From positions 1 through 64,000 of the IMG/VR virus record IMGVR_UViG_3300025141_016306: a stretch of 64,000 bases of DNA; one strand, given 5' to 3'. Origin of the DNA: a virus. This document shows positions 2,251 through 64,000 of this stretch, one piece after another. Below the pieces are notes generated by a model. The model searched no databases and was not told the origin of the DNA. It saw nothing but the letters and a program-made list of their open reading frames with translations. Made by a program: the position numbers and the translations under genes. Each line of letters begins with the position of its first letter. Position 1 is the first letter of the stretch.

Positions 2251-3582
2251 TTATTCTATCACGGTTTTAGGATCGGTGCCCTGAGTGGCCACGTAAGCCA
2301 CTGTTCGCCTTCTTATTCCGGGTGGCCCAGCCACTGCGTAAGAGAAAGGAAGATTGCCAGGATCGGATGTCAATATCCCGTCATATGCGCCGGCATCGCC
2401 GGATCCTTCTGACATTCCCGTAAAGCATCCCATATAATAAGAAGCATCCTCACCTTCGGGGGCATATTGGTATTGTGAAGGTTGTTGGAGATATTTGTTA
2501 ATAACGAAGGTGTCTGAAAAGTCGGGGTAACTTGAGACCGTTTCAGAGTTCCATGCTTGGTTGGTGACTGTTCGGCTGCTTCCGCTTATATCAGTGGTTA
2601 TGCCCTCGTAAGCTGAGCCGCGCTGCGAAAGTACGCTGTCGCTTTGAAGAATATAACTTCCTATGACTGCAGACATTGGATTGGCGTTAATAGCGCTGGA
2701 ATCCTGAAACCCTACGTCTCCAATATCGTTCAATTCAAGATCCCCTGTGCCGGCTGAACCGTTTGCATCGTTGGCCTGGTTTCTCCATCGTGCGGTTCCC
2801 GCGTATACGGCGCAATAGGAGTGATCGTCTGATGCAACTCCGTAATCTGCATATGAACTCGTGGCGACGACTATAGAATTAATTATTTTCCCGATTCGCA
2901 CGATAGGGATCGCATCGATGTCGCCTGTGGGTCTCGCAATGAAAGTGCAAAAGCTAGCTGTGCAGGTAAGGTCATTAAAGGAGTTGAGGAGCATGTCATC
3001 ATATGGCAATGTGCCCGTTATAAGACAATTGTTGAATTTGGCGAATTGGTTGACGCGAATGGCGTCGGTGCCGGCGGTCTTAAAAAAGAAGGCACAGCCT
3101 TCAAAGCTGGAACTCTCGTTGGTGTCCCAAGACTTTCCTTCAAGGCTGACATAAGTAAGCCTAGGGACGCTGTGGGTAAAACATCCGGACATGCTTACAA
3201 CGCGGCGGTCATCGACGGCGCTTTGATCTCCGTTGTGAAAGATATAAGAGGCGAAGTCCCCCGTCTCCAACCCTTGAAAATACGCGCCCGCCGTTATATT
3301 ACCAAATCGAACGAAATATTGCAATTGGCCCGGGCCGAGATCGGTGCCAAGAATCTGGGGCCGGCCGCGCTCACTAGCGGTATGTCGAACGGTCCAGCCA
3401 TTATAACTGAATGTGAACTCGCCTTCATAATAACGCCCCTCATCGGTAATCTCGATAATTTGATCGTGACCGCCGGCGCTGGCGCTTGTAACGGCGGCGC
3501 CGATTGTTGCAAGGGGGGTGGCCATATTTGAGGCATCGCCGGTGGCGTCCGAACCGAATGAAGAATTTACATACCAAACCAT
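2251..3582 (-). CDS. Putative virion-associated beta-rich protein (pectin-lyase-like/beta-helix; DUF1565-like N-terminus)
   Basis: N-terminal WYVNSSFGSDATGDAS...PLATIGAAV is typical of the start of parallel beta-helix proteins; FxNC/FCT-type repeats; own ACTAATTA promoter. Confidence 0.5.
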   Translation of the reverse strand: MVWYVNSSFGSDATGDASNMATPLATIGAAVTSASAGGHDQIIEITDEGRYYEGEFTFSYNGWTVRHTASERGRPQILGTDLGPGQLQYFVRFGNITAGAYFQGLETGDFASYIFHNGDQSAVDDRRVVSMSGCFTHSVPRLTYVSLEGKSWDTNESSSFEGCAFFFKTAGTDAIRVNQFAKFNNCLITGTLPYDDMLLNSFNDLTCTASFCTFIARPTGDIDAIPIVRIGKIINSIVVATSSYADYGVASDDHSYCAVYAGTARWRNQANDANGSAGTGDLELNDIGDVGFQDSSAINANPMSAVIGSYILQSDSVLSQRGSAYEGITTDISGSSRTVTNQAWNSETVSSYPDFSDTFVINKYLQQPSQYQYAPEGEDASYYMGCFTGMSEGSGDAGAYDGILTSDPGNLPFSYAVAGPPGIRRRTVAYVATQGTDPKTVIE

Positions 3583-3587
3583 AAGAT

Positions 3588-3595
3588 TAATTAGT
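3588..3595 (-). promoter_or_regulatory. Putative phage late promoter ACTAATTA
   Basis: Exact octamer 5 nt before the ATG at 3582. Confidence 0.55.
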
Positions 3596-3617
3596 TTTTA
3601 AAGCAATTATCGCTCTT

Positions 3618-8312: not shown

Positions 8313-9491
8313 CTATATGTCTAATTTTAACTTAAATGTGAAATCTCGTAAAGCAGTTTTTTTGATGGGGGTGGCTAGATTGGCCACTGCGATGAGATTT
8401 TTATTCTTATCGTAAATTCCTATTTTATTTATAAACGTTTGATGTTTAAAGTCTGATTCAAAACGGTAAAACGAACTGCTCACAGTATTGAATATTTCAA
8501 CCTCTTCGGATTCCTGAAATCGATTTGATCCGGTTACCACCGTTCCAGACAAGTAGGACGCATGGTCTAATAGTGTCTGGTTGGTGGAAAAATTCAATTC
8601 CGATTTTGGCGCTGTTGCAAACATGGTGATGGTCTCAATATTGTTCTGACCTTCGAAGTTAACTCTAAAGCTGGCTGACGGCGTTACGCCTCCGATATTG
8701 TCATTTGCGCCGGCTGCGAAATCAATCCAGCGAAACTCCCCGGTATCGGCGCCGCGATCATGGGTAGCCTCAGAAAGGCCCCAGCTTCCTGTCAAGACAA
8801 CGACACCTTCTTTATATAAAACCACACCGGCAACAGCGCCGGCGCCATTAGTCTGTGCGTATGTGTTGCCAGAAACTTGGATAAGCTCTCCGTTGCGATA
8901 GAGATCTTGAGCTTCGGCGACTAGTGTGCCCGAAATATAGAACTTAAGGCTTGTGGTGCCTGGGTATATTTTGCTCCCATAGAAAATAGAAGGTATATAA
9001 AGCAGAGAAAGTTCCTGTGTCGCTTTATTCCACAAAGACGACGAGAACGCATAATGATTGGACATCGGCTGATAGTAGTTAAGGGTTTCCCGCAGAGCCA
9101 ACACGTGCGAGCCGGTGGGGAATAAGGTGCCGTGATCCACCGCAAAGTGCTCCCGGCCTAATGAAGCCGTTAGCGGATATGTTCCCGAAACCACGTTCCC
9201 ATATTCAAAAGCGCTAAAATAGTCCTTTTGGGAAACGCCGCCGAGTGCTTCAAAACTCCCCTCTTTCGTGACAAAAGGATATACCAGGGAGTCGCTTGGG
9301 CGATCTACATTTATTTCGTATAGGCTTAAATTACCTACATCCATGCAGCCGACGTTTGAGACAAACGCTCCCGACTCAGCATTTTTATTATTGAGGTAGA
9401 CCTTATTCTCGTTTATATCAAATTGTACTTCGGGATATGTCTCCATAGTGTTACGGAGAATCTCGTTCTTTTTAAACTTATAATAAGGCAT
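8313..9491 (-). CDS. Virion structural protein (baseplate/tail-fibre attachment family); paralog of 9524..10609
   Basis: C-terminal FINKIGIYDKNKNLIAVANLATPIKK...FKLKLD; central GVVLYKEGVVVLT shared with the neighbour's GHVYYQAGIMVLT. Confidence 0.7.
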   Translation of the reverse strand: MPYYKFKKNEILRNTMETYPEVQFDINENKVYLNNKNAESGAFVSNVGCMDVGNLSLYEINVDRPSDSLVYPFVTKEGSFEALGGVSQKDYFSAFEYGNVVSGTYPLTASLGREHFAVDHGTLFPTGSHVLALRETLNYYQPMSNHYAFSSSLWNKATQELSLLYIPSIFYGSKIYPGTTSLKFYISGTLVAEAQDLYRNGELIQVSGNTYAQTNGAGAVAGVVLYKEGVVVLTGSWGLSEATHDRGADTGEFRWIDFAAGANDNIGGVTPSASFRVNFEGQNNIETITMFATAPKSELNFSTNQTLLDHASYLSGTVVTGSNRFQESEEVEIFNTVSSSFYRFESDFKHQTFINKIGIYDKNKNLIAVANLATPIKKTALRDFTFKLKLDI

Positions 9492-9502
9492 CTATTTTTC
9501 TC

Positions 9503-9520
9503 TAAGTAATTGTAATTACT
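9503..9520 (-). promoter_or_regulatory. Putative late promoter variants (AGTAATTA / ATTACTTA)
   Basis: Intergenic AGTAATTACAATTACTTA before the ATG at 9491; the 11-mer ACAATTACTTA is also found at 33136-33146. Confidence 0.4.
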
Positions 9521-9523
9521 AGT

Positions 9524-10609
9524 TTAGTAATCAAGCCGTACCCGTAGAGTAATCTCGTTTGAAGGAGTTTTCTTCAGGGGCTCGGATAACTTCGCAACAG
9601 CCAAAAGTTCATTGTCGGGTGAATATAGCCCCACAGATGTGATGTAGGCCACTGGATCTGCCGCTGGGTTGTTGCCCTTGACAACGATTTCAGAGCCCGA
9701 CAAATAGGTTGTATTTGCAGAATAGTTAAATTCAGTATTGTGTGCGCGAGCAAAATAAATGGTAGAATTGAGTTCGGTCGTATTGTTAAACGATATATTA
9801 TCAAATGCATATCGCAGACCGTCGGAAAGTTGATCAATGGTGCCGCTTTTCAGCATCTGGTTCATAGATGACGTCATCCAGCCCGCGTCGGAATCTGGGC
9901 CTGGTGTGTCCGTTCCGGCGCCGGTATTATCTCCGCCGCCGAACTGACCCGTAAAGAACGAAGCAGTGAGGACCATGATGCCCGCTTGATAATAAACGTG
10001 CCCCACTGGGCTATTGTCTGTAATATCGGTCGATGAGGTGTAGAGAAGACCGTATTCGCCGGCGGGGCTGTTAGTTTTATAATTGGTGGCTGCGTTATAA
10101 TCTGAGATCGTGGTCTCTGTTCCGCGCGCGGTTCCCACAGCGCTGCTGGTGGCATACAAATCAATTGAGAACGATTCCTTTTTGATCTCATCCTTATTCA
10201 GCAATCGTGCGAACGAAACGAAAACGACTTCTCGCAGGTCATCGCTGGTATCGTAGTCCTCGGCGCCGTTTTTATCAAAATCCTTAATGTTTCCGCTGAT
10301 GTCAGTGTTGTTAAGCACGAGACACATTTGTTGGTAAATGTTTATCTTCTTAGTATTCTGTTCGTAATCGGGGTTGTTCAGACCAGACCCGGTGGCATAT
10401 CCCCACGTAATATCAAAAATATGGTTAGCAGAAGAACTTAAGTACGGATAGTCATAGACCGACTGGAACATCCCATGTGCGTATCCCTTAATGTTGTTGT
10501 CTGAATAGGTTCCGGAAACGATGGTACCGGTGATTGGAATCGCCTCGTGCAATAGTGTCCGAGTGTTCGCGATGTCTTCTGGTAAGAAGGTCTTGAATGA
10601 GTTAGCCAT
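9524..10609 (-). CDS. Virion structural protein (baseplate/tail-fibre attachment family)
   Basis: C-terminal YITSVGLYSPDNELLAVAKLSEPLKK...RVRLDY; S/T/G/N-rich; SD AGGAG. Confidence 0.7.
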   Translation of the reverse strand: MANSFKTFLPEDIANTRTLLHEAIPITGTIVSGTYSDNNIKGYAHGMFQSVYDYPYLSSSANHIFDITWGYATGSGLNNPDYEQNTKKINIYQQMCLVLNNTDISGNIKDFDKNGAEDYDTSDDLREVVFVSFARLLNKDEIKKESFSIDLYATSSAVGTARGTETTISDYNAATNYKTNSPAGEYGLLYTSSTDITDNSPVGHVYYQAGIMVLTASFFTGQFGGGDNTGAGTDTPGPDSDAGWMTSSMNQMLKSGTIDQLSDGLRYAFDNISFNNTTELNSTIYFARAHNTEFNYSANTTYLSGSEIVVKGNNPAADPVAYITSVGLYSPDNELLAVAKLSEPLKKTPSNEITLRVRLDY

Positions 10610-11678: not shown

Positions 11679-14600
11679 TTAGTCCCCACACAACGTATCA
11701 GAACTATTAACGATATTGGCATTATTAAGTAGTCCCTCGGACTCTTTATAGACCTCTGAGCCCGTTGGCTTGCCCGGGCTGGCTACAGGCGCTCCGGTAG
11801 TGTCTCCGCCGACCGCGTTCATGTTCGAGGAGACAAATTTGTTGATGATTTGATTGTTCATATCCACATTGATGTCTATCTTCTTTCCTGTCTTCTTTGA
11901 TATTATCCTAAACTTGTATTTTTTGAAAGCATCACCCGCCAACGGCTGGTAGGCCACATCTGCGGTTTCGGCGCTTTGGCCGACCGCTTTTCTCAAGTTA
12001 TCACTAAGCGCAATTTTAATATACTTTTTAAACGGAACGCTTGTGATTGCTGTCGGCCTCTTAAAGTGAAAAGGCTTCAAAACCATAAAGGGAGGCGAAG
12101 CCTCTTCTTTCACAATGCGCACTGAAAAAATGTTCGTTGGATTGGATATATTCCCATGAACGTCTATAAATCGTGCAAAATAATAATAAGTAACGTTTGA
12201 AGATATGATATCATCTGTGCCGCTTTGTTTTAAAGAATTCAAAGTAATTTTTTTGACATTGGCCTCGTCTCTAAAGTCCGACCACTGTTCAGGCTTCTTG
12301 TTAAGCCTATAGACTTCATACGTTCCCCGGTTATCATCCGTCTTGTAAAGTATGTGCCCTTGAGGTTTGGCCTCGGCCTTTTGCGCTTTCTTATATTCAG
12401 CCACTTTGGCTGCGTCTGTGCTAAATATTTGTGTGTTTGGAATCAAAGGTCTTTCCCCATAATTTTGATTCAGCAGCATTAAAACCCGATTAGCTGATCC
12501 CTGATAAGGGTGAAATGCGATATCGGGGGGTAGCGGTGGTTTATCGGTAACAAAAGTTTCGTGGTGTTCTTCGCCGCCCGGGCGGATCAATTCCTCGTTA
12601 TTATAATAGGGCGCGCGGACAATTAGCGCGTAGGGTTCTATGATCGGCGCAATCAGCCGCGGCGGCTTATATTCATAAAGCCCCTCTTCCAGGGAGATAT
12701 ACCCATCATATGTGTCGCCTTGTGTGCCGGCTGGCGGGGGCTGCGGGGTTCCTCGGTTGTAACGATAAACAGCGCCGACAACAAGCGTGTGAGCATAAAC
12801 CTCATAAACGTACTTCTGCTCATAAAAAACCTGCGTATCGAGATAGCTGAGCGGAGTGTCTTTGTCAAACATGTTGGGGATGAATATGCTCTGGATTCTT
12901 TTCTTTTGGCGGCCCGGGAGAGTGCCAGCCGCGTCGTCGTATTTATATTTGACTATCTCATAGGCGATAACCTCCGTGTGGCATTTTTTCCCCTCGTAGG
13001 CTTCTTTGAGTGACGGTGCTCGATTGAAAAGATATTCCATGATGTCGTCATTAATTGTATTAAGTGCCGAGTGAAATACTTCCATTGAATCGGCATAGCC
13101 GTGCTTCACCTCGTGAATATTCAACAAATTAGAGAGTTTTACATTCTTTTCATCATTAATATAGGGGCCATAAGTATTATTAAAAGTCTCAAGCGAGTCC
13201 ATATTAAGTAATTGAGAGAGGTCAAAAATTTGTGTGTCGACCATCGCCACATTGTTATGGAGAGTTTGCAATGCAGAATCACTAAGAGTCGCATCTTCCA
13301 TCATAAAATTCACAAAATCATGATACATTACAAACCGGTGCGCAAAACTAATATCGCCTCCGGAAGGATTATAAGTGTTATAGTAAGTGGTGTTATTAGC
13401 CAACAGCGTCATTAACATATTGACCATGCCTCCAGTGGGGCTTCGGCGATTAATCGTGTCCATAAGTCCAGAAGAAAATTGAGTGCCTAAATCGATTTCA
13501 ACACCATATGGGAATGCCTTTTTCAATGCTTTAGTCGAATTCAATAGCCCCTTGTCCGTCAACACAATTGTGTCAAATCGCGCAGCCGTGTGATATCGCT
13601 CAACCCCGGTTGCGACGGCACTCAGATCGGAATATGCCCATGGCCACCCTTCATGGATTAAAACAGAACTATTGCGCGTTAACTTAACATAATCCTTTAC
13701 AGTTAGCTTGTCCTTCGAGATTGGAGTTTTATTTCCCAAATCAATAAGCTGGTGGAAATAACCACTGGTGCTTTTTGGGGAACTCTTATAAGCATTGTAG
13801 ACATAAGGGTTGGGCAATTGCCATTCCGAAACCACGTTCTGGGGGCTAAGTTCAAAAAGTTCGTTATAGAAGTTATAATATGGTGTTACTTTCACATTTC
13901 GCGCGACAGTGTGCTCGTCTTCCATGCTTTTTTCGCTAAATGGCGTTGCAACGTTAAAATCGGCAACGAAATATGTATGAAAGGGATACGAGGCAAACAC
14001 TTCGTCCATGGTCTGCACCATCGGGAACATTAATTGATAGATCATGCGAAAGAAAAACGTTTGTTCGCGAGTCTTGGTGAAATGTTTCCAACTCTCCGGG
14101 TCCACGCCAGTATCATATAGTGCCTTAGTGAGCCCGGTACCGGGCCACGCGTTGAGCTTAGCCTGCTCATTGTAGGGTGCGACGCTGAGAGTGGAGAGGG
14201 GCATTATGTCCAACCCAGCCGGGGGCATCTTCGGCCATTGAAGTTGGTGGTCTCTAAAAGCATGCGCGCTTAAGCCTTCTGGGACTGTATAGGGTGTATC
14301 GGCTTCTTGCCACTCAGTAAAAAAATCTTTGACGGCCTGGGTAGTTTTATCCCACCGGAGAAGCGAATCTGTGGGTAACTCGGGCGCAATAATGGGGTTG
14401 GAGAGCCCCCACCATGGCTGGTGGGTGCGGTCATCTCTCACAGTCAAATTTGTGAAATAATCTGTGAATTTAAAACTTGCGGAAAAGTTGGCAAAATTAG
14501 TATCAATAATTTGCTGGGCGTCAAGCAAGTTGATTTTAGGGGCGTCGCTTGTTTTGAACTCTACGGAGCTTCCCGCAATTTGCTGCGAAGGTGGAGGTGC

Positions 14601-14855: not shown

Positions 14856-14863
14856 GGTTTACC

Positions 14864-15169: not shown

Positions 15170-15170
15170 A

Positions 15171-32660: not shown

Positions 32661-32675
32661 CGTTTAAAAATCTTC

Positions 32676-49482: not shown

Positions 49483-49504
49483 ATATTACTCAATTTGACA
49501 CAAG

Positions 49505-52825: not shown

Positions 52826-52835
52826 TATAAATTAC

Positions 52836-53720: not shown

Positions 53721-53721
53721 A

Positions 53722-54699
53722 TTAGATTGCTCCTTTTAGGGCCTTGAAAACGTCCTTAGAGGTGTTGGCCACCTCTTGGTTCTCAAGATACCACTCAATG
53801 GTATTTTTAATGCCCTCTTCTATCGATATTTGGGGTTTAAAGCCCAGTTTATCGGCGCGGGACATGTCGAATACTCGTCTCGCGTCGCCTGTGGGCTTGC
53901 TTGTGTCCCACTCGATGGGTATATTTGCGGCATGGGCGATGGTTTCCGCGATTCTTTTGATAGAAATTTCGTCCCCAGAACCCAAATTAAGGGGCTCGGT
54001 GATTTTATTTTCTACTACGAACAGCATTCCGCGAGCGACATCTTTGGCATGGATGAAATCGCGGATGGCAGATCCGTCGCCCCAGACCTCAAGCTTGCCA
54101 TTGGTGAAAGCTTTGCGTATCAGAGAGGGAATAACCATGGCGCTGTCGGGATCAAATGTATCATGTGGGCCATAAACGTTGGCTGGTCTTACAATACTGC
54201 ATTTTCCTTGTCCATATTGTCGTTCGTAGGCCTGGCATTGAAGTTCTCCCATGCGTTTGGCCCATCCGCCAAACCAATCGTTTTTTGATGGTTGTGTTTT
54301 CCACACATCGTCTTCACGAAGGACTTCTGCGGGTTCATATACTCCTACGGTGCTTGTATAGAGGTACCACTCGACATTCTGCTTCATCGCAGCTTCAAGC
54401 ATATTGGTGTTGAATTGCAGCATTGGGCCCATAATGCTCGCTGGTTCTTCGATACAGACGCGAGGAGAGCATTTGATGCCCACCAAATTGAAAACAAAGT
54501 CAATATTTTCGCACACTTGTAGGCACGAATCGTAGCTGCGCAGATCGACCTCGTGAAAAAGAATTTTATCCGACATGCCCGTGGGCTTTTTAATATCTGC
54601 CACGTGAACGATGGCGTTTCTCTCAAGAAGCAACGCTACAAGCTGACGTCCAATCATCCCTGCTCCGCCTGTTACTAACACATTTTTATTTTCAAACAT
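53722..54699 (-). CDS. Extended SDR, GDP-fucose-synthase/ColC-like (atypical active site)
   Basis: VTGGAGMIG, RPANVYGP.D, VIPSLI, VWGDGS..RDF; the YxxxK position reads GGWAK. Confidence 0.82.
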   Translation of the reverse strand: MFENKNVLVTGGAGMIGRQLVALLLERNAIVHVADIKKPTGMSDKILFHEVDLRSYDSCLQVCENIDFVFNLVGIKCSPRVCIEEPASIMGPMLQFNTNMLEAAMKQNVEWYLYTSTVGVYEPAEVLREDDVWKTQPSKNDWFGGWAKRMGELQCQAYERQYGQGKCSIVRPANVYGPHDTFDPDSAMVIPSLIRKAFTNGKLEVWGDGSAIRDFIHAKDVARGMLFVVENKITEPLNLGSGDEISIKRIAETIAHAANIPIEWDTSKPTGDARRVFDMSRADKLGFKPQISIEEGIKNTIEWYLENQEVANTSKDVFKALKGAI

Positions 54700-55855
54700 C
54701 GTTTAAACCTCTGCAAAGCGCAACTATTTGCTCTTTGCTTAATTCTGTGTGATTACCAATATATAGACTATTCTCGTGTATATAGTCTGCGTTGGCTAGG
54801 TCGTCGGCCTGTCTAAAAGAATACTTTTTCAAATAAGGCTGGCGCGCCTGGTTTCCTCCGCCGGCGGTACCTAATCTATATTCTACACCTTCTGTCTCCA
54901 AAAAGTTGCATATGTTAGAAAGAGCCATTGCGTCTGGTTTTGCTAAAATCAAAGGGAGGGCGAAATTGCTATTCCCCTTTGTGTCGAAAGCCGTAAAATA
55001 CTTTTCACTATCCAGATTGTCGAGCCAAACAGCCAGATTTTCTTTTCTACAATCGATATTAAAATCAAGCCTGTGCATTTGCTGGAGTCCCAATACTGCA
55101 TTTAACTCCGTGCTTCTCATATTATAGCCGGGAACGCCGAAAGTAAACATAGGGTTGAGGCCTTCTTCATAATAATGGTCATGGGTTTCTTGCGACACTT
55201 CACGCGTCATACCATGAGAGCGGAAAAGCTTGGCGAGTTGGTATATCTCGTAATTATCTGTGCATACCATTCCACCTTCGATGGTGGTTATGTGGTGCCC
55301 AAAATAAAAGGAGAAGCAAGACATGTCTCCCCAGCTACCCACGCGGTCTTCCTTGAAGATGGCGCCATGGGACTCACAGCAATCTTCTATAAGCAATAAA
55401 TTATGAGTTAGCGCAAGCTGAATTATTTTTTCATTTAACCCATTAAAACCCAAACAATGAACCAGCACGATAGCTTTGGTTTCTTCGGTAATGGCATTTT
55501 TAATATTTTCATACGCAATGGACATATTGCTTTTGTCTACGTCCACGAAAACCGGTGTCAACCCTGTATTGATGACGGACGCTACATCGGATACCCACCC
55601 GATGGGGGGTACAATAACTTCCCCCTGTTGTCCTTTTAGTTCGCGAGTGATGGCCATTGTTATATAATTTGCGGAGGCACCAGAATTAACAAAGACGCTA
55701 TGCTTAACGCCCAACCATTCAGACCATTTTTTTTCAAATTCTCGAACTCTTTCTCCTTGTGTAAGACGAACATTCGGAATCTTTAAAAAATCAATTAAGG
55801 CATTTTTATCTTCGGCTGTAATGTTATCATTTATTAAAGGCCACTTAAATGTCAT
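54692..55855 (-). CDS. PLP-dependent GDP-4-keto-6-deoxymannose 3-dehydratase (ColD-type, DegT family)
   Basis: VNSGASAN, EDCCESHG and FSFYFGHHITTIEGG with His replacing the Schiff-base Lys; no obvious E1/DdhC Fe-S Cys cluster. Start moved to MTFKWP. Confidence 0.85.
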   Translation of the reverse strand: MTFKWPLINDNITAEDKNALIDFLKIPNVRLTQGERVREFEKKWSEWLGVKHSVFVNSGASANYITMAITRELKGQQGEVIVPPIGWVSDVASVINTGLTPVFVDVDKSNMSIAYENIKNAITEETKAIVLVHCLGFNGLNEKIIQLALTHNLLLIEDCCESHGAIFKEDRVGSWGDMSCFSFYFGHHITTIEGGMVCTDNYEIYQLAKLFRSHGMTREVSQETHDHYYEEGLNPMFTFGVPGYNMRSTELNAVLGLQQMHRLDFNIDCRKENLAVWLDNLDSEKYFTAFDTKGNSNFALPLILAKPDAMALSNICNFLETEGVEYRLGTAGGGNQARQPYLKKYSFRQADDLANADYIHENSLYIGNHTELSKEQIVALCRGLNDV

Positions 55856-55856
55856 A

Positions 55857-56366
55857 TCATTTATCTCTTTTCTGTAGGGTTGGGTTGTCTGTTGGCCAGT
55901 CAATGTTTAAATTCTCATCATTCCATTTTAAAGTAAACTGGTCTTCAACATCCGGGTATGATCCTTCGTACAACCACTTATAATAAAAAACAGCATCATC
56001 GCTCATGACATAAAAACCGTTTCCATATCCCGGTGGAACCAACACCATTTTTCTGTTTTTTGATGTCAGCATTGTCCAATCCCAGTGATTGTATGTGGAT
56101 GAATTTTTTCTATTGTCAACAACTACAAAATATATTTCTCCATGGAGGCATGTCACTAACTTTGTAGACTTAAAGTCGCCGTGAATTCCTCGAAGAACAT
56201 GCTTTCTAGAAGTCGAAACTTTATCATGGTTAAAATTTATTTCTTTGAAAACTTTTCCCTTCTCCCACAGAGTCCACAAGTCTCCCCTATAGTCAGAATA
56301 ACAATCTGGTGACAGAATTTTAACCTCAGAAAATTTCATGCTTTGTATAACATTGCTGGAATTCAT
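55857..56366 (-). CDS. rmlC: NDP-4-keto-6-deoxyhexose 3,5-epimerase (RmlC family), copy 2
   Basis: DYRG, VLRGIHGD, KLVTCL.G...VVVD.R, VPPGYGNGF. Confidence 0.85.
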   Translation of the reverse strand: MNSSNVIQSMKFSEVKILSPDCYSDYRGDLWTLWEKGKVFKEINFNHDKVSTSRKHVLRGIHGDFKSTKLVTCLHGEIYFVVVDNRKNSSTYNHWDWTMLTSKNRKMVLVPPGYGNGFYVMSDDAVFYYKWLYEGSYPDVEDQFTLKWNDENLNIDWPTDNPTLQKRDK

Positions 56367-57709
56367 TAGCCGTTTTCCTCGTCACTATAACCTACCGGGC
56401 CGTATCCATGACTCTTAACAAGATCTTGAAGCTTTAAATAGTTGTTGATGATTACTTCACTTTTTTCTCCCTTTCCCCAGGGAGTATTTTCATCATATTC
56501 AAAGGTCAGTGTGGGTAGCTCTTCTTCGTATCTACTATACATGTGCATCGTGTTTTCCCATGATGTTTTAACCTCTTTGATTCCGAATTTTTTTGGATTA
56601 TCATAAACAGGAGTGCCTGGGCGGACCGTAAAAAGTGATAAATAAACAGCATCCGGACCGGTCTCTTGTATAAAATCCCAAGTTTTATCAACAATGTCAG
56701 TAGGTTCTCCAGGTAGGCCCAGAATCATATAAATTCGTGTTTCAATTCCAGCTTTTTTAAGAAGTTTTATACTTTTCCTTGCTCTCTCAACTTTGATTTT
56801 TTTATTAATAATGTCCAGCGATTGCTGAGAAACACTCTCAACACCCATGCACATTATAATACAGCCGGCGTCTTTAGACAGGCTGGCTATCTCTGGCGTG
56901 ACCGAATCAACACGACACTGTGCCTTCCAGACCACCCCGGTACTTCCTATCGCCTCTAAGTGAGGTATGGCTTTGCTTTTTTTGAGAGGCATACAAATTT
57001 CATCTACCATACTGATTCCACACACACCATACTCTCGCTTAAGATACTCAATCTCCTCTTTAATGAGTTCCGGGGATCGAAATCTTATACCCGGACTGAA
57101 TTGTTTTGATGCCGGCATTGCGCAAAATGAACAGCTGTACGGACACCCACGACTAAACATTGTAGTTGTTCCTACGATCTTGTCGTATCCGGGAGTATTC
57201 TTTAATGTTAATAATCCTGGTCTAGCTATTGTTAATTTTGGCAAATATTTTCGAAGAGGATACGGATGATCGTTAATGTTCGTGCTTTTGCTAATATACC
57301 TTTTTTTTAACTTTGAATCGCGAATATCTTCAATAACCTGGATGATTGATTGTTCTCCATCACCTAACACAATTGCATCAAAAACCTCTAGTGTCTTCTC
57401 TTGAAAAGCTGTTGCATGCGGACCCCCTGCAATATGAAGTGCTGTCGGGTACCTCTGTTTCAATTGCTCAACAATTGACTCTTGTTCATAGAGGTCTAGG
57501 GTATAAAGAGAATGAAGATAAACATCACATTCTTGAATATGATAAATTGCAAATCTTTTTTTTATGCCCCTTAAATCTATTAAGGATACATCAACCTCAG
57601 AACCGAAATGAGATTCAAGAATTGTGAGTATTTGAAAATGTGTGTGTGGATCTCCCCGGAAGGGATCATGTAAATACTCACTACTTGGAAAAATAAATCC
57701 AATTTTCAT
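56366..57709 (-). CDS. Cobalamin-binding radical SAM enzyme (class B methyltransferase-like)
   Basis: IAGGPHAT, GDGE, SRGCPYSCSFC, GVES, ILGLPGE, PGTP. Confidence 0.9.
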   Translation of the reverse strand: MKIGFIFPSSEYLHDPFRGDPHTHFQILTILESHFGSEVDVSLIDLRGIKKRFAIYHIQECDVYLHSLYTLDLYEQESIVEQLKQRYPTALHIAGGPHATAFQEKTLEVFDAIVLGDGEQSIIQVIEDIRDSKLKKRYISKSTNINDHPYPLRKYLPKLTIARPGLLTLKNTPGYDKIVGTTTMFSRGCPYSCSFCAMPASKQFSPGIRFRSPELIKEEIEYLKREYGVCGISMVDEICMPLKKSKAIPHLEAIGSTGVVWKAQCRVDSVTPEIASLSKDAGCIIMCMGVESVSQQSLDIINKKIKVERARKSIKLLKKAGIETRIYMILGLPGEPTDIVDKTWDFIQETGPDAVYLSLFTVRPGTPVYDNPKKFGIKEVKTSWENTMHMYSRYEEELPTLTFEYDENTPWGKGEKSEVIINNYLKLQDLVKSHGYGPVGYSDEENG

Positions 57710-57722
57710 TTTTATTTCCTCT

Positions 57723-58634
57723 TTATTGTGTCGACGAGCAGCATTCCCTTACTTTCTTTACTATCTCCGACGCAGAAGGTGGCAAGTTATCTACTCTCGG
57801 ATGAAAGCCGGCTGTTCGATGTTTCAGTGCCATTGTGTGAATCGGTTTATTAGATTTCAGCATGATGCGATGTGCTATGCTGCTAGCAGCACCTTCCTCA
57901 TAGTCATCATCTAATACAATTCCTCCAAATTTAGAAGATTTTAATGCTGTCAAAGACTCTTCACTCAAGTTAAAGGGCTTGATCCACAAAATATGATCCA
58001 CATTTACCCTATAACCCTCTGACTCTAAAGATCTGCAGGCTTCTTCTGCAGCAAACCTAGTAATAGATATCGGAAACAAAGTGATGTCTGATTCTTCATG
58101 AAACGTATTCGGTAATTCTTCAGTGTTGTCATAGCTCTTTCGGTGTTCTGAGATGTAATAAACACAGTCGTCTTTCATGAAACTGTTATAAACACTTCTG
58201 TATTCTTCTGGTGTCATTGGAGCTGCTATCTTGACTCCCGGCATTCTTTGATAAATTGAGTGGTGGGAAGAGCCGGCCACCGGGCCGATACCGCCTTCCA
58301 TGGCGATACTTCTAACCATGAGGGGACATGGGCGTTGCCAAATCTCTTGTGATTTCATGGCGTAATTGGCGATAATGGGCGAATTATACCATTGGAATCC
58401 TTGATATCTAACGACATAAATTGGTCGTTCGCCAGCTAGCGCTAAACCGGTGACAATACCTCCGCCTGCAACATCTGCCATTGAAAGTTCAACCATGCCA
58501 TCTTCTTCATAGAGTTCAGGAAGGGTTCCACCAACCCAGCCGACGGCTGTGAGACATTGGCCAAAGCAACGGCTGCCGTTCGCAAGGTGGGTGCGAGTTA
58601 TTTCTTTTATTGTGTCTCTAACTGTTTTTGCCAT
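57723..58634 (-). CDS. ThDP-dependent enzyme, E1 beta/transketolase C-terminal-like subunit
   Basis: GLALAGERPI, HHSIY..MPGVKIAAPMTP, SEHR, WIKPF; adjacent to the alpha subunit. Confidence 0.82.
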   Translation of the reverse strand: MAKTVRDTIKEITRTHLANGSRCFGQCLTAVGWVGGTLPELYEEDGMVELSMADVAGGGIVTGLALAGERPIYVVRYQGFQWYNSPIIANYAMKSQEIWQRPCPLMVRSIAMEGGIGPVAGSSHHSIYQRMPGVKIAAPMTPEEYRSVYNSFMKDDCVYYISEHRKSYDNTEELPNTFHEESDITLFPISITRFAAEEACRSLESEGYRVNVDHILWIKPFNLSEESLTALKSSKFGGIVLDDDYEEGAASSIAHRIMLKSNKPIHTMALKHRTAGFHPRVDNLPPSASEIVKKVRECCSSTQ

Positions 58635-59446
58635 ATCTCTTCTACTTTTTGCTTCGTTTGTTTATCAATCGCGCTGGCCTCTTCGCCTAAATCATCCATT
58701 TCTACCTGATATCTGTCAAAAATGTTCTCGTCGTCGATTCCCGCACCCGAATGCCAAAATTTTCTATGCGTGTTCACATTCAACAGAACAGGGCCATCAG
58801 AGAATGGATTTTTCAGGAAAGATGCCAACTCCAGCGGATCATCGCTGGTGTCAAAACCTTTCATTTTAAACCCCTTCGCCACGTCGGGCAATTCCCAATT
58901 GCGCCGCATCTTCTTTTCGGTTAAAATGGAAAGATTGTTATCCTCCACCACAAAGATCATTGGAAGATTTTTGGTGGAAGCCCAGCCTAGGGCGCCGAAC
59001 ACGTAGTCTTCTTCGGCAGATGCGTCTCCCAAATGCACAATAGTGGGGTGTTGGGTACTGTAACAATGGCCAACGGCGATTGGGGCTTGAGAGCCCATGA
59101 GGCCGTCATGACCAAATATATTTTTTTCTTTGGAGTGAATCGAAGCGGATCCGCCCATCCCGTAAGCGCAGCCTGTAGAGCGCCCAAGCAACTCGTCTAC
59201 AAGCGCTTCAGGCGGTGCGTCATAAGATAAATATGTCGAGTGGCCGCGGTGTTGAATAAAGATATTGGGGTTAATTTTTTTCTGGTGTAGCACCTGGGCT
59301 ATAGTCGCAGAAATATACTCTTGACCCGCAGAGAGGTAGATAGGAAACTTAAACATTTTACTCTGAATTCCGTTAAATACATATTGTTCAAAATTTCGAC
59401 ACAATGACGCCCTTTTGAAAACGTTTATTCTAAAATCCCTGCTCAT
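58607..59446 (-). CDS. ThDP-dependent enzyme, E1 alpha-like subunit
   Basis: YLSAGQE, HRGH, GMGGS, ThDP motif GDAS...EDN, HSG. Confidence 0.87.
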   Translation of the reverse strand: MSRDFRINVFKRASLCRNFEQYVFNGIQSKMFKFPIYLSAGQEYISATIAQVLHQKKINPNIFIQHRGHSTYLSYDAPPEALVDELLGRSTGCAYGMGGSASIHSKEKNIFGHDGLMGSQAPIAVGHCYSTQHPTIVHLGDASAEEDYVFGALGWASTKNLPMIFVVEDNNLSILTEKKMRRNWELPDVAKGFKMKGFDTSDDPLELASFLKNPFSDGPVLLNVNTHRKFWHSGAGIDDENIFDRYQVEMDDLGEEASAIDKQTKQKVEEIWQKQLETQ

Positions 59447-59955
59447 AGAATGCTCTCCCAGCAGTCAAAACTATTGCGATCTATTGCTTTGACGCCCCCT
59501 ATCGAGGCTGCTTCGGTCAAATCTTTTTCATTGTCATCGAAAAAAACGTATTCTCCGCAAACATCCGCAATTTCTTTTATATTATACAGCTTTAGGTCTG
59601 TTTTGTAAAGTAAAATCTTCTTATAATTGAAAAATTCGTATATTCCAAACCTCTTTAACAAGAGGACCGACGGTTGCTTTTCATACTCGACTTCGTATAT
59701 GCCACCGCGGGAAAGAAACCCAATGTTTTTACCCAAAGCCTGTAACTTTTCTAGAACAGGACGGATGCCGGCGTGTAGCGAACATGTGGAGAAAACATCA
59801 TCAATAATAGTATCCGACCATTCTCCCTCAATAGTATAAGGTAAGAGCATTTGTTTTGCCCATATGGGCTCCCCGGTTTTGGAATTTGTATCCCAGACGG
59901 TGCGATCTAAATCAAAAATAAAAGTATCATACCGCGCTGCTAGGTCCGCTATCAT
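59443..59955 (-). CDS. Magnesium-dependent phosphatase-1-like HAD phosphatase (subfamily IIIC)
   Basis: FDLDRTVW motif I, LSR, FFDDNEK; start moved to MIADL. Confidence 0.75.
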   Translation of the reverse strand: MIADLAARYDTFIFDLDRTVWDTNSKTGEPIWAKQMLLPYTIEGEWSDTIIDDVFSTCSLHAGIRPVLEKLQALGKNIGFLSRGGIYEVEYEKQPSVLLLKRFGIYEFFNYKKILLYKTDLKLYNIKEIADVCGEYVFFDDNEKDLTEAASIGGVKAIDRNSFDCWESIL

Positions 59956-60622
59956 TCTTTTTCTCCACAATCATGGTGACGGTGTCGGTGACCACGTCCT
60001 TAAACACAGTCATCAACTTCTTAAGAACTGCTCCGGACACAATGTCGCCCGGGCCAGCGACGGTTGTTGCGTAATCTGTGATGAGACCGCCCCTTAGAAA
60101 AGTAACATGTGTATCGTCGGGCAAATCGGCGAAATAAGAGGAGCTATCAACGCTCGTTAAATGAATATTGCAATTTGCAAAATCATAAGTCACGGTCTGT
60201 GATGGGGGCGGATCTTCAAGCCATAAGCAGTCGTCTTTTTTGGGCGCTTCGAAAGTGTTATCCTCATAAGGCTTTCCCTCGCGACCGTAAAAATCTTTGA
60301 AACGTACCAAATCATGTTTATCGACGGGTGTTTCGATCTCCATTACCCATGCGCCTGGTTGGCTCACCGCCTGAGTGGAGTGAAAAAGGCCTTTTCTAAT
60401 CATCATTTTCCCGCAAGTTTCGACAAAAAACTTATTACTGAGAAATGATATCTGCACATCCCCGTCAAGCACCATCAGTCCAGTGGTTTTGTTGGGGTGA
60501 CAGTGCATTGATGTCGCTTGCTTGTGGGCAATATATAAAAACCAAAGACCTACGTGTTCATTTTCGTAGGCCAGGTATTCATAGCCCCAGGGCTTCTTAA
60601 CTATGGTGTCTTCATAGCTCAT
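59927..60622 (-). CDS. Cupin-domain protein (mannose-6-P isomerase type II-like N-terminus) with C-terminal extension
   Basis: VKKPWGYE, TSMHCHPNK, FHST, DLVRFKDFYGR. Confidence 0.75.
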   Translation of the reverse strand: MSYEDTIVKKPWGYEYLAYENEHVGLWFLYIAHKQATSMHCHPNKTTGLMVLDGDVQISFLSNKFFVETCGKMMIRKGLFHSTQAVSQPGAWVMEIETPVDKHDLVRFKDFYGREGKPYEDNTFEAPKKDDCLWLEDPPPSQTVTYDFANCNIHLTSVDSSSYFADLPDDTHVTFLRGGLITDYATTVAGPGDIVSGAVLKKLMTVFKDVVTDTVTMIVEKKNDSGPSSAV

Positions 60623-61158
60623 TTCCCTCTTTTCTCTAAAACTTCATATCCAGTTCTCATCCACTCGCCCATAAAGTCATAATGAGGGGAGGAAACTATA
60701 TTGCTATCAACAACAACCGGGCCTCTATGATAAGTTGCCCCAGCGTTGTTGATGTCAGCTTCAATGGCATAATAACCCGACACTGTTTTGCCTCTAAGAA
60801 CATCTGCCGTAATCAATAATTGGGCGCCATTGCATAGAGAGAAAATAGTTTTGTCTAACGCATTCCACTCGCGTACAAATTCAACTACCCCCTCCTCTAA
60901 TCTTAATTTTTCCAAAGCCTTAACGCCTCCTGGGACTATCAATAGATCATATTGCAGGTACTTTTCTCTAGTCTCGGAATCATTAAAATCAGACGTCAAT
61001 ACGTCACCAACCATGTGACATCCTAAAATTCCATAGAATCTTCCCAACTGATTGGCTACAATTGTAACCTCAAAGTTGTTTTCCTTTAAGCTGTGATAAG
61101 GGTATATTAACTCGTGGTCTTGAAAACCGGCATGAGTAAGGATAAGTGCTTTTTTCAT
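60619..61158 (-). CDS. DJ-1/PfpI family protein (glyoxalase/deglycase/protease fold)
   Basis: GFQDHELIYP, YDLLIVPGG, nucleophile elbow LCNGAQLL, VVVDSNIVSS. Confidence 0.87.
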   Translation of the reverse strand: MKKALILTHAGFQDHELIYPYHSLKENNFEVTIVANQLGRFYGILGCHMVGDVLTSDFNDSETREKYLQYDLLIVPGGVKALEKLRLEEGVVEFVREWNALDKTIFSLCNGAQLLITADVLRGKTVSGYYAIEADINNAGATYHRGPVVVDSNIVSSPHYDFMGEWMRTGYEVLEKRGK

Positions 61159-61667
61159 ATTTTAATTCCTCTTTTGTCTCTGACCTGTAAGATTGGATTC
61201 TCAATAGGCCAATTAATTCTAAGTGTGGGGTTGTCCCACGATAACGTAAATTGTTCTGACACGTCCGGGTAATCGCCCGGATATGCCCATTTATAGTGAA
61301 AGACGGATTGTTCGCTTAAAACCACAAAGCCGTTGCCCACGCCGGGAGGTATTAAAACCTGTTTGCGAGTGCGATCATCTAATACAATCCAATCCCATTG
61401 TCGAAACGTGTCCGAGTTGGGCCGGTTGTCGGCAACGACGAAATAAAGCTCTCCATATAAGCAGGTTACCAATTTCCAGGACTTAAAATCCCCATGAATC
61501 CCCCGGAGAACGTTTTTCCGCGATGTCGATACTTTATCATGATTGAACTCTAAATTAAAATTGTTTGTGTCTTTGTGCCATAAAGTCCAAAGGTCGCCGC
61601 GGTAATCAGTATATATATCCGGGGTGTACACCTGTACATCTTTTATTTTTTCCAACTGATTTTCCAA
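61155..61667 (-). CDS. rmlC: NDP-4-keto-6-deoxyhexose 3,5-epimerase (RmlC family), copy 1
   Basis: DYRG, VLRGIHGD, KLVTCLYG, IPPGVGNGF. Confidence 0.85.
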   Translation of the reverse strand: MENQLEKIKDVQVYTPDIYTDYRGDLWTLWHKDTNNFNLEFNHDKVSTSRKNVLRGIHGDFKSWKLVTCLYGELYFVVADNRPNSDTFRQWDWIVLDDRTRKQVLIPPGVGNGFVVLSEQSVFHYKWAYPGDYPDVSEQFTLSWDNPTLRINWPIENPILQVRDKRGIKI

Positions 61668-62059
61668 TCTTTAAACTCTGCGGCCAAGCAATCAATTTTA
61701 TAATCCTTTCGGCCGCCAACTACCTCTTGTATGCGATTTTTAGCTGTGTTTCGGATCCCATTTAAACCATGGGTAAGTTCAAGATCGTTGCCGTCCTTGA
61801 TTCCTTTCCGATAGTTGGATTCGTTGTGCCATATATGCAGATTCATTTGCGATAATACAACCACAGCCCGTAACACTTCTGCGTTCAGTATAGCATCTTT
61901 ACTGGTTAAAATTAAATTGATATCGTGCAGAATAGCGGCTATCTCTTCCGCATATTCTTCTTTGTGTTCCGGTATGAAAACTTCTTTAAGTTGGGCTATG
62001 GAGAGTCTGTCAATTAACTCTGATAAGGTGGGAAGGTACTTTCTTTCTGCGCTGCTCAT
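61643..62059 (-). CDS. Hypothetical helical protein (DUF6165/DUF4254-like)
   Basis: ELIDRLSI..LK...NL.IW..E...N..R...K..I pattern, which I recall from small proteins found next to glycosyltransferases. Confidence 0.55.
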   Translation of the reverse strand: MSSAERKYLPTLSELIDRLSIAQLKEVFIPEHKEEYAEEIAAILHDINLILTSKDAILNAEVLRAVVVLSQMNLHIWHNESNYRKGIKDGNDLELTHGLNGIRNTAKNRIQEVVGGRKDYKIDCLAAEFKDWKISWKK

Positions 62060-62077
62060 TTCTTGCCTCTTATTTGG

Positions 62078-62863
62078 TTACTTGGAACAAAGCAGCACAT
62101 AATTTTTTATTTCATTGGTGGGAGGGTTCTCCTCCTCCAGGACCACATTGGAAAATATTTTATTTAACTCGTCGATCATCCACTGCTGTTTGTTCTCGTC
62201 TCTAAAGTTTATCAAAAAATAGCCATAATTGCAAGTTTTAATTACATTATCGATATAAAATTTTATTCCTTTGCGATCCAACTCAGACAAGCACCAGTTA
62301 GAAACAACAAGATCGTATTCTTTAAGCTCGATGGACTCGGTATCATGGAGAGATACATTGGGATGCTTGTACAGGCTTAAATATTTTTTAGCCAACCCCA
62401 AGGTTTGCGCGCGATCAATCAAGTCCATGGATTTAACCCCATATTTCAAAATAATATTGGCTTGGCCGCCATATCCACTCCCAATCTCGCAAACGCTTTT
62501 GCCGTGAGGGTCGACCAATCGAGTCTTGATGTCCTGAAGAACCGACAAGAAGCATAAAGTGCCGGGACTAATCATTCCAGTTTTTTCATAGTGATAAAAC
62601 AATGGGTTGCCGACGGCGTCATTGTTTTTATATTTGTCGATGCTCTCCATTAGTTCTGTGTCTTTAAGGAAATTGTACCATACATCCGCGATATTCTTGT
62701 GCCGGATATCATTCCCAATAACTTTGCAAAAAATATTATTTCTTTTGAAATTCAAAAGCTTTTGTTTATCATGGCAAATATTAACACATTCTTGCAAGAA
62801 TGCATCCTCCAGGTTAGCTACGATCCCGGCATGCCACTCGCCGTCAAATTTTAATTGTGTCAT
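62078..62863 (-). CDS. Putative sugar O-methyltransferase (SAM-dependent)
   Basis: VGNP, EIGSGYGGQ SAM-binding motif, YDLVVSNWCLSEL. Confidence 0.82.
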   Translation of the reverse strand: MTQLKFDGEWHAGIVANLEDAFLQECVNICHDKQKLLNFKRNNIFCKVIGNDIRHKNIADVWYNFLKDTELMESIDKYKNNDAVGNPLFYHYEKTGMISPGTLCFLSVLQDIKTRLVDPHGKSVCEIGSGYGGQANIILKYGVKSMDLIDRAQTLGLAKKYLSLYKHPNVSLHDTESIELKEYDLVVSNWCLSELDRKGIKFYIDNVIKTCNYGYFLINFRDENKQQWMIDELNKIFSNVVLEEENPPTNEIKNYVLLCSK

Positions 62864-64000
62864 TTTACTCCCCTTGCTTGTGGATTTAATTTGTCAAAAT
62901 CAACAACCTTGTGAATCAAATCAGCTAGTTGGTCATCGGCTCTCCAATAATTCTTGGCGAGTTCAAAGTTCTTCTTCACTGATTCTAGACGCGAATAATA
63001 ATCTTCTTCAGTCAAATTCGATAAGATTTCATCCAACTCTTCATAAGTGTCAAAAAAGATAACCCCGTTTTCATCAAAATATTTACCAACTTCACGAGTT
63101 CCCCAAAAAATAGGGATGGTGCCTGTAATTAAAGGATCGATAAAGTCCGTGAAAAAAGTATCCAATTGGCAATTCTGGATTATAATGCTAAACATGTGAT
63201 CTTTTAGGGCCAATATCTTGCCGTGCTGTGGAAAGCGTTTAAACCCGCCGCCCCATAGCTCAATATTGTGCTTTTCAGCCAACTCATCTGCCACGCGATG
63301 TCTTAAAATGTGGCCAGGAGCCCATTTTTTCTCGCTCGCAACCATTGAAACGAGCTTGCTTTTTTCATGGACTCCCCAGTCATCATGGTGTACGCGTAAA
63401 AAACAAAACGGGAAGAGATGGCATTTTTCATATTTGTCCGCGAGTTCTTGGCTGAAAGAGAATAAATAATCTAGTTCTGGTAGCACTTCGGGCACTGCGT
63501 CAAAAGCCCATTGATGGACAACGGGAGGCTCCATAATCCAGCCTATCTTGATGGGGGAATTAACCGCTTTAATAACCCCGGGCCTCAAGAATCGATCCGT
63601 AAAAATAGTAATGCCTGAATATTCGTGAAAGTATCTCTTGCCCTCGACATAGCGCAATTTTTTGCCGCGTGGTGCTTTTTCGCCTTGTGTCGTTATATAG
63701 CCGAAATCCGGATGATCCTGGGTGTGGATAAAGTTGTTGTCAAAAAGATTAACAGTCAGCAACGGTGATTCGGGATCGTCGTATATACAATTATATTCCT
63801 CAAAATGTGTAGGGGAGGTAGGGTGAAAATCTAGAAAGGAGGGGTGAAATTCATAACCCTCTTTTTCAAAAAACCTCGGGGGATTGTTCGCATGTTGACC
63901 CCAAATTAAATCTCTCTCCTCAAGGAACCCTTCTTTTACAAGCTCCTTGATCGTTTCCGGTTGCAGTCCCAATACATTATATTTGTCGGGGTTAAAGCGC
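62860..64000 (-). CDS. GT10 (fucosyltransferase-like) glycosyltransferase, N-terminally truncated by the window edge, probably multidomain
   Basis: EPP, KSKLVSMVAS.K...GH..R, LKDHMFSIII.N...TGTIPIFWG. The frame stays open from 63972 to 64000 (RFNPDKYNVLGLQ), so the true start lies outside the window. Confidence 0.8.
   Translation of the reverse strand, partial: RFNPDKYNVLGLQPETIKELVKEGFLEERDLIWGQHANNPPRFFEKEGYEFHPSFLDFHPTSPTHFEEYNCIYDDPESPLLTVNLFDNNFIHTQDHPDFGYITTQGEKAPRGKKLRYVEGKRYFHEYSGITIFTDRFLRPGVIKAVNSPIKIGWIMEPPVVHQWAFDAVPEVLPELDYLFSFSQELADKYEKCHLFPFCFLRVHHDDWGVHEKSKLVSMVASEKKWAPGHILRHRVADELAEKHNIELWGGGFKRFPQHGKILALKDHMFSIIIQNCQLDTFFTDFIDPLITGTIPIFWGTREVGKYFDENGVIFFDTYEELDEILSNLTEEDYYSRLESVKKNFELAKNYWRADDQLADLIHKVVDFDKLNPQARGVK

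Follow-up and report, generated by a model that had tools for sequence, protein, structure and literature searches.

A selected Ser/Thr-small-Ser tripeptide in outer baseplate and fibre proteins of marine T4-like phages, and the phage glycosyltransferases that may read it

Marine phage genomes often carry islands of sugar-nucleotide and glycosyltransferase (GT) genes of unknown purpose. The first 64 kb (positions 1 to 64,000, called the window below) of the 82.6-kb viral contig IMGVR_UViG_3300025141_016306 in IMG/VR, whose CheckV completeness is about 26%, raise the question of how one such island might relate to the virion proteins encoded beside it. The element in question is the tripeptide [ST][GAS]S, here called the tag, which recurs in some of the structural proteins of this T4-like phage. 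An earlier note on the same DNA had proposed that it is an acceptor sequon for O-glycosylation of the virion by the adjacent sugar and GT cluster. To our knowledge, virion glycosylation by virus-encoded enzymes has been shown only for a few mycobacteriophages, chloroviruses and giant viruses, and we know of no acceptor sequon in a phage. Sequence comparisons indicate that the tag is a real, ordered and selected feature of a defined subset of apparently outward-lying virion proteins, and that it is dispensable for their fold; whether the phage's own GTs read it is weighed below.

Expected tag counts were taken from 2000 composition-preserving shuffles of each protein. Overall, the tag is three- to sixfold above chance in the outer baseplate and fibre proteins. 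A giant protein of 3156 amino acids (aa) has 57 tags where 12.3 are expected (z 12.7), with TAS (z 9.1) and TGS (z 8.4) as its two most over-represented tripeptides, and the 493-aa protein has 16 against 2.8 (z 8.1). The 392-, 361- and 374-aa proteins are also enriched, the excess in a 443-aa protein is marginal (p 0.04), and the 3232-, 1195- and 1058-aa proteins and the gp6-like wedge protein are at background (counts in Table 1); each sugar enzyme of the window has 0-1 tags. The tags are internal and dispersed, not tandem. These shuffles, a comparison that the earlier note had itself proposed, bear out its description of a dispersed tripeptide abundant in particular structural open reading frames (ORFs) and rare in the 3232-, 1195-, 1058-aa and gp6 proteins; among the proteins that it listed as enriched, those of 3156, 493, 392 and 361 aa stand, but the 443-aa protein is a weak member.

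A composition artefact is excluded as the source by the global shuffles together with local ones, in which the excess persists when shuffling is confined to blocks of 10, 20, 40 or 100 residues. Codons at tag sites vary freely over all synonymous options, both Ser codon families included, so the signal is at the protein level and is neither a DNA-level word nor a methylation site. A repeated domain is also excluded, since BLAST finds no internal repeats and only two paralog pairs (392/361 and 374/326 aa). These pairs (window 8313-11606 and 18752-19876, minus strand) match over their C-terminal halves (361/392 aa, E 8e-9) and their N-termini (374/326 aa, E 6e-4), and three of the four proteins carry the tag. 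Nor is the tag a generic trait of fibre and baseplate proteins: in 20 virion proteins of phage T4, including Ser/Thr/Gly/Ala-rich fibres, its z values run from -1.1 to 1.7.

The motif is directional, as the earlier note had seen by eye. In the five target proteins T[GA]S occurs 39 times against 6 expected and S[GA]T 11 times against 5. When 83 orthologous proteins from related contigs (115,000 residues; the sequences are akin and hence not independent samples) are pooled, the enrichments are 5.9-fold for TGS, 4.4-fold for SGS, 3.5-fold for TAS, 2.8-fold for SAS, 2.6-fold for SSS and 2.2-fold for TSS, and the reversed or Thr-ending forms SAT, TAT, SST and TST stand at 0.7- to 1.1-fold. In the target proteins large or charged middle residues (branched, acidic or basic) are at or below expectation, and at position 3 Thr or Asn is barely enriched and Asp not at all. 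The hydrophobic or aromatic residue that the earlier note had placed ahead of the motif is also found: Trp (3.8-fold), Tyr and Phe are favoured at position -2 and Leu (2.0-fold), Ile (1.7-fold), Val, His and Tyr at position -1, and the residue following the tag tends to be Val, Ala, Ile or Phe, with Lys, Arg, Asp, Glu and Pro depleted around it. In pooled upstream baseplate proteins the tag is depleted to 0.4- to 0.7-fold, a variable effect that is absent from the window's 3232-aa protein.

The tag is not peculiar to this contig, and its lineage is a very large group of uncultured marine T4-like phages with hundreds of related members. IMG/VR contains at least 487 relatives of the 493-aa family; the gene has no match among cultured phages in the copy of INPHARED searched. 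Enrichment of its ortholog is seen for 38 of the 41 homologs from a first search round and for all 73 from a second (47-66% identity; z 3.1-9.3), every one of 111 orthologs at 43% identity or more retains the tag, and the downstream giants are enriched in 57 of 57 cases scored. In four long contigs the same enriched set recurs, namely the 493-like protein, the downstream giant or giants and the 361/392 pair, and the upstream giant and gp6 are never enriched. A search for independent lineages with GT4b (one of the GTs described below) and family profiles returned the same lineage only, among the best 80 loci.

One sister clade (contigs L041, L043, L044 and L050-L056) is poor in tags. It has full-length 493-like orthologs at about 38% identity with 2 sites, against 9-17 elsewhere; its giants are at background, and its 361-like ortholog alone is flagged as enriched (6 vs 1.7, z 3.3). 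At about 15 columns where the tag is well represented in the family, this clade carries unrelated tripeptides, polar or charged, such as KDA, EEL, DVS and NGN, and none of the alternative tags sought there (Ala-Thr-Pro, TxT, D[ST]x, N-x-S/T) rises above background. In the same clade a partial ORF upstream of the upstream giant (L041:3-1046, L052:3-992, L054:3-1025, L055:1-945, plus strand) has 3-4 tags where 0.7-0.8 are expected; its counterpart in contig G033 is a 331-aa homolog of the window's 504-aa protein, which has no tags. The set of tagged proteins thus seems to differ between clades.

Individual sites are conserved as members of a class. When 493-family orthologs that are 40-60% identical are compared, tag sites are matched by a tag in the partner 50% of the time (14% by a swap within the class), and sites of the control classes [ST][GAS]T, S[GA]T, [ST][GAS][ND], [ND][GAS][ST] and [ST][ST][GA] are retained in 3-12%. 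The corresponding figure for the giant's first 1000 residues is 40%, with 17% through swaps, and polar controls there reach 5-26%; among 25 sequences there are 88 tag columns, 12 of them at least half occupied and 36 singletons, with 10-25 tags per sequence. A conserved core of sites is thus accompanied by turnover at a maintained density. Gly, Ala, Ser and Cys interchange at given tag columns. Where family members lack the tag, a hydrophobic residue stands at position 2 in only 3% of cases and at position 3 in 2% (background 32%), and at position -1 in 52%. Because whole orthologs are tag-poor and the substitutions at tag columns are polar, the fold does not need the tag, and its positions are probably exposed or turn-like.

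Models of these proteins agree in part with the surface turns that the earlier note expected. Pfam and PHROGs searches of the tag-rich target proteins, the 3156-aa giant included, found no domains. The AlphaFold2 model of the 493-aa protein predicts beta-sandwich modules like FN3/Ig and carbohydrate-binding modules. Counted were 26 sites, namely every one of the 15 in the 493-aa model and 11 in regions of the giant that are modelled with confidence. Strand ends or hairpin turns hold about 12 of them and loops 9; another 4 fall within strands and 1 caps a helix. On these models, and with ortholog substitutions taken as a proxy for solvent accessibility, the sites are predicted to occupy mixed contexts and to be mostly exposed.

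Which enzymes might act on such sites? Just beyond the window end lies a conserved GT core of two GT4 genes (GT4a and GT4b), a module that we call X and a GT2 gene. The GT4 pair occurs in 20-21 of the 32 related contigs, one of them a complete 183.6-kb genome, and 146 relatives of GT4b were found, on contigs that reach 204 kb. Sequence matches of the GT4 proteins in the PDB are to generic GT4 enzymes (BshA, chlorovirus B736L), not to GtfA. Module X is virus-specific, has GT1-like relatives and occurs either free or fused ahead of GT2. Here two neighbouring ORFs encode module X (291 aa) and GT2 (248 aa) (contig 65521-67145, L049:2822-4446, minus strand), and in G001, G003, G004, G013 and G016 they form one fused protein of about 540 aa.

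The island between the late-sigma-like gene and this core is of another character. Synteny with four long relatives places it between these two conserved anchors. It spans 3.6-22 kb where contigs are rich in tags, and about 2 kb in two that are poor in them. Here it encodes an HldE-like kinase, an adenylyltransferase-HAD protein, a GMD-like, two Fcl-like and an SDR enzyme, an RfbH/PseC-like enzyme, two RmlC-like proteins, a PhyH protein, a B12-radical SAM protein, a thiamine pyrophosphate (TPP) E1 alpha/beta pair, HAD and DJ-1 proteins, and a GT10-like ORF that runs off the window end. The HldE-, GMD-, Fcl-, RfbH- and RmlC-like enzymes all score below the NCBIfam equivalog cut-offs; this includes the HldE domain I- and II-like proteins, and GmhA was not seen. 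The inventory in the earlier note was right at the level of families, but of the two GTs that it counted in the window only the GT10-like one is confirmed, with four more modules just beyond. Two dioxygenase-type genes also lie inside the island on the minus strand: a small cupin (window 47686-48045) that matches a phage 'cysteine dioxygenase' PHROG (E 1e-58), and the PhyH-family dioxygenase (window 50512-51300). Otherwise strong matches to the anchors in some relatives (late sigma in G006, G007 and G024; module X in G003, G006 and G023) contain one or two in-frame TAG/TAA stops, which could reflect alignment overrun into an overlapping upstream ORF, sequencing error or recoding.

The GTs and sugar enzymes are all soluble. 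A crude hydropathy scan of four islands and five contigs turned up no ORF with as many as four hydrophobic segments, and at most one segment per island ORF; flippase, polymerase, ABC-permease and initiating-transferase types are accordingly absent there, and the earlier note's observation that the window has no Wzx/Wzy/ABC exporter is upheld in that no polytopic membrane protein was found. The known routes of DNA glycosylation through 5-hydroxymethylcytosine (hmC), 5-hydroxymethyluracil (hmU) and 5-hydroxycytosine (5hoC) all start from an enzyme of the thymidylate synthase family (PMC13326640). No member of that family (ThyA, PF00303) was found in the complete genome G024, in the 78%-complete G016 or in three others, with the limit that weak matches in G024 could be missed. 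Since neither polytopic membrane ORFs nor a ThyA-family gene was found, routes linked to undecaprenyl phosphate and the known DNA-glycosylation routes are unlikely, and a soluble acceptor remains plausible.

The tag has a fixed order, appears to be exposed, is under selection as a class, is confined to outward-lying proteins and is dispensable for their fold. A motif that some other factor reads would account for this pattern better than an element of structure alone. O-glycosylation by the GT core is ranked first among such readings because the GTs are the only conserved, soluble and suitably placed enzymes, and because cytoplasmic O-glycosyltransferases have a precedent (PMC3835316). Tentatively, then, and with somewhat less than an even chance of being right, the tag may be a selected recognition tag that the outermost baseplate and fibre proteins present at exposed turns, at loops and at the ends of strands, usually after an aromatic and then an aliphatic residue. 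Its readers would be the conserved cytoplasmic soluble GTs, that is, two catalytically intact GT4 proteins (with the E-x7-E motif), a divergent GT-like module and GT2, which would attach O-glycans to the invariant Ser, and possibly also to the first Ser/Thr, at many sites before or during assembly. The hypervariable island, here an 18.6-kb heptose/deoxysugar cluster, would supply strain-specific sugars and extra transferases, so that the glycan and not the tag would vary. The attachment of a sugar, the identity of the enzyme that reads the tag and the role of the island are what we infer. A little more doubtful again is the fuller picture in which a three-residue code, [S/T]-small-Ser at strand-loop junctions, would direct the phage's GTs to tens of sites and build an island-diversified glycan coat.

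Several observations weigh against glycosylation by the GT core. No gene whose presence or absence was tested tracks the tag: none of the GT10-like gene, the GT4 pair, the GT2 domain, module X, GT4 catalytic integrity and island size held as a correlate of tag load. The tag-poor clade has both GT4 genes, with the GT2 domain fused to the GT4a C-terminus (644 aa); GT4a and GT4b keep E-x7-E in all five genomes aligned, the tag-poor clade included; and module X escapes detection in several contigs that are rich in tags and gives a weak match in one that is poor in them. The island genes have no orthologs in G016, G013, G003 or G033, and within the rich clade tag load is flat over island sizes of 3.6-22 kb (observed/expected ratio 2.6-4.1). 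The phylogenetic contrast rests on one clade split. Non-target proteins of the same genomes are not depleted in the tripeptide (ratio 0.86-1.32), so that sequon avoidance is not seen genome-wide and the tripeptide alone cannot suffice as the signal. Model confidence is low to moderate (the predicted local distance difference test, pLDDT, gives 72.7 in the 493-aa model and 60.9 in that of the N-terminal 1000 residues of the giant), and some sites are mid-strand. Finally, literature searches brought up neither a tag of this kind nor any account of glycosylated baseplates in phages. The tripeptide thus behaves as the acceptor sequon of the earlier note should, being ordered, selected, apparently exposed and confined to an outward-lying subset, but the tie to the adjacent cluster drawn there fails: the island is hypervariable and without orthologs in four relatives, tag load ignores its size, and the co-occurrence looked for was not found, the GT10-like gene being present in 3 of 32 related contigs.

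That the tag is simply an unmodified structural or physicochemical element of the protein surface, with the GTs and the island serving an unrelated purpose, is rather unlikely but is the strongest of the alternatives. It could be a strand-end or tight-turn cap, or a hydroxyl-plus-aromatic patch for binding host polysaccharide or resisting damage. About half of the sites in confident regions are modelled at the ends of strands or in hairpin turns, the tag-poor orthologs have the turn tripeptides NGN, DNG and ADG at several tag columns, [ND]-G-[ND] stands at 0.69-fold in the rich clade and 1.46-fold in the poor one, an aromatic residue at position -2 would share a strand face with both hydroxyls, no gene co-varies with the tag and other proteins show no avoidance. 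However, plain replacement of Asn/Asp-Gly turns accounts for at most about one-quarter of the excess (per 1000 residues there are 11 more tags and 2.7 fewer [ND]-G), and a positive-phi turn would not allow the interchange of Gly, Ala, Ser and Cys seen at tag columns. The good turn formers Asn, Asp and Thr are not, or barely, favoured at position 3, the modelled contexts are mixed (turn, loop, mid-strand, helix cap), orthologs of the same fold do without the tag, and nothing similar is found in the T4 fibres and baseplate.

The island and GT core might instead remodel a target that is not protein, either a host envelope glycan built on host lipid carriers or the phage DNA, and lie beside the tagged genes by coincidence. 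Turnover of the island does resemble that of bacterial O-antigen and capsule loci, and phage GTs that modify DNA and host serotype are known (PMC12619734, PMC13326640). This is unlikely, however, given that no ORF of the initiating phosphoglycosyltransferase, flippase, polymerase or ABC permease type occurs in the four islands and five contigs and that no ThyA-family enzyme was found in the complete or the 78%-complete relative; it would also leave the tag unexplained. Less probable still is a reader that is not a GT, such as another modification (phosphorylation, acylation), a host enzyme or docking of a phage assembly chaperone. Concerted gain or loss at the level of clades across non-homologous proteins, with conservation of the class through swaps, does point to a reader, and no particular GT correlates with the tag, but the 82.6-kb contig showed no candidate for a kinase, an acyltransferase or a dedicated chaperone, and GTs are its only conserved, soluble enzyme class adjoining the late structural module.

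The GtfA/GtfB O-linked N-acetylglucosamine (O-GlcNAc) transferase pair, in which GtfB is non-catalytic, modifies serine-rich repeat adhesins in the cytoplasm, and glycosylation of the tag by the GT core would be like it, by description, in its two adjacent proteins of the GT4 fold and its Ser-small-Ser type acceptors on surface adhesin-like proteins. It would differ in that both phage GT4 proteins keep E-x7-E and that the acceptors are dispersed single tripeptides, not long tandem repeats. The earlier note had pointed to heptose transfer of the Aah/TibC type onto autotransporters. The bacterial autotransporter heptosyltransferases Aah and TibC act on AIDA-I and TibA (PMC3835316, PMC4358343). 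Shared features would be a cytoplasmic soluble enzyme and many Ser sites per substrate. Aah recognises a strand-loop-strand motif and modifies the residue starting the loop (PMC3835316), an arrangement that the modelled sites at strand ends or hairpin turns may resemble, and the HldE-like proteins of the window may be ADP-heptose enzymes. However, the Aah/TibC acceptors are 19-residue beta-helix repeats and those here are modelled as beta-sandwich modules; no match to the heptosyltransferase family GT9 (PF01075) was found at E <= 0.1 on the 82.6-kb contig, itself a fragment; and the heptose genes lie in an island without orthologs in four relatives, while tag-rich relatives number more than 100. 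An Aah/TibC-like mechanism with the window's heptose/deoxysugar cluster as the responsible system is thus not supported.

Virion O-glycosylation by phage-encoded GTs has been described in mycobacteriophages (Freeman et al. 2023, as cited in PMC12619734). According to that citation, these phages likewise have their own soluble GTs in the genome, virion proteins as proposed acceptors and a proposed role in shielding or recognition; their glycans are on the C-terminal ends of siphovirus capsid and tail-tube subunits. Here, in contrast, the candidate acceptor is a dispersed internal tripeptide in the baseplate and fibres of a T4-like myovirus, with tens of sites per protein and a hypervariable island, all known from sequence; capsid and tube genes are not on the 82.6-kb contig. 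Chloroviruses (PMC9614988, PMC5408694) also have virus-encoded sugar-nucleotide enzymes and soluble GTs that are independent of host export, and the chlorovirus GT B736L is a weak sequence match to GT4b; they differ in their eukaryotic host, in N-linked glycans at atypical sequons on the major capsid protein and in enzymes that are unrelated overall. Aquatic 'moraphages' described in 2025 have four core GT orthogroups together with gp6, gp25, PhoH and a sigma factor, and predicted Bacteroidota hosts (PMC12619734). The Bacteroidota sequon D-[ST]-[AILVMT] is not enriched in the tag-rich proteins of two relatives (11 vs 13 and 19 vs 16).

The minus strand carries every gene of the contig. In the order of transcription the contig starts with PhoH, a tubulin-like gene and a PD-(D/E)XK nuclease, followed by two GT4 genes, the 291-aa module X and GT2; the 18.6-kb sugar-nucleotide island, the late-sigma-like gene, a 497-aa protein with an amidase domain, the 504-aa protein and the 3232-aa giant come next. 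The gp25-like and gp6-like wedge proteins and then the proteins of 493, 3156, 374, 1195, 101, 1058, 326, 361 and 392 aa follow, and RuvC-like, primase-like and fused Mre11/Rad50-like genes end the series. The tubulin-like gene is a 384-aa ORF (contig 75700-76854, L049:13001-14155, minus strand) with a weak match to the tubulin/FtsZ family (PF00091, below cut-off) and no ortholog in the four compared relatives. The 497-aa protein (window 44405-45898, minus strand) has an amidase/endolysin-like domain in its middle, is encoded just upstream of the 504-aa, 3232-aa and gp25/gp6 genes, has no ortholog in the four compared contigs and may be a baseplate-hub lysin. In the 1051-aa Mre11/Rad50-like ORF (window 3618-6773, minus strand) an N-terminal Mre11/SbcD-type phosphoesterase is joined to a Rad50/SbcC-type ATPase; these are two genes in T4 (gp47 and gp46), and relatives keep the fusion at 42-57% identity.

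Table 1. Features discussed in the text. Positions are those of the window unless marked; tags are given as observed vs expected.
Feature	Position	Strand	Tags	Remarks
443-aa protein	2251..3582	minus	6 vs 2.7	doubtful member of the tag-rich set; no ortholog in the four compared contigs
392-aa protein	8313..9491	minus	7 vs 1.4	paralog of the 361-aa protein, C-terminal half in common
361-aa protein	9524..10609	minus	7 vs 1.7	fibre-like, tag-rich
1058-, 101- and 1195-aa structural proteins	11679..18758	minus	2 vs 1.8 (1058 aa); 1 vs 3.1 (1195 aa)	tag at background
374-aa protein	18752..19876	minus	4 vs 0.4	tag-rich; N-terminus in common with the 326-aa protein
3156-aa giant	19915..29385	minus	57 vs 12.3	putative outer baseplate/fibre protein; tags dispersed over residues 92 to 2762
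493-aa protein	29389..30870	minus	16 vs 2.8	directly downstream of the gp6-like gene; modelled carbohydrate-binding-module-like and FN3/Ig-like beta-sandwich modules
gp25-like and gp6-like baseplate wedge genes	30870..33080	minus	0 vs 0.3 and 0 vs 1.5	no tags
3232-aa giant	33163..42861	minus	5 vs 4.9	upstream of gp25/gp6; internal negative control
late-sigma-like gene	46188..46919	minus		conserved anchor at the proximal edge of the island
hypervariable sugar island	47686..64000, reaching about 66.3 kb on the contig	minus		gene content in text
conserved GT core, beyond the window end	contig: GT2 65521-66267, module X 66270-67145, GT4a 67099-68403, GT4b 68404-69669	minus

If the proposed reading is true, the tag would be the first defined phage O-glycosylation sequon, and it would explain the polysaccharide-type gene islands of marine phages, with a bearing on host recognition, virion stability, and evasion of grazing or immunity in the ocean. 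A conserved, apparently exposed tag on outer baseplate and fibre proteins is in any case a concrete hypothesis with mapped sites, testable on recombinant proteins although the phages are uncultured. Should the tag prove not to be glycosylated, a clade-wide, protein-selective surface code that is read by something else would still need an explanation.

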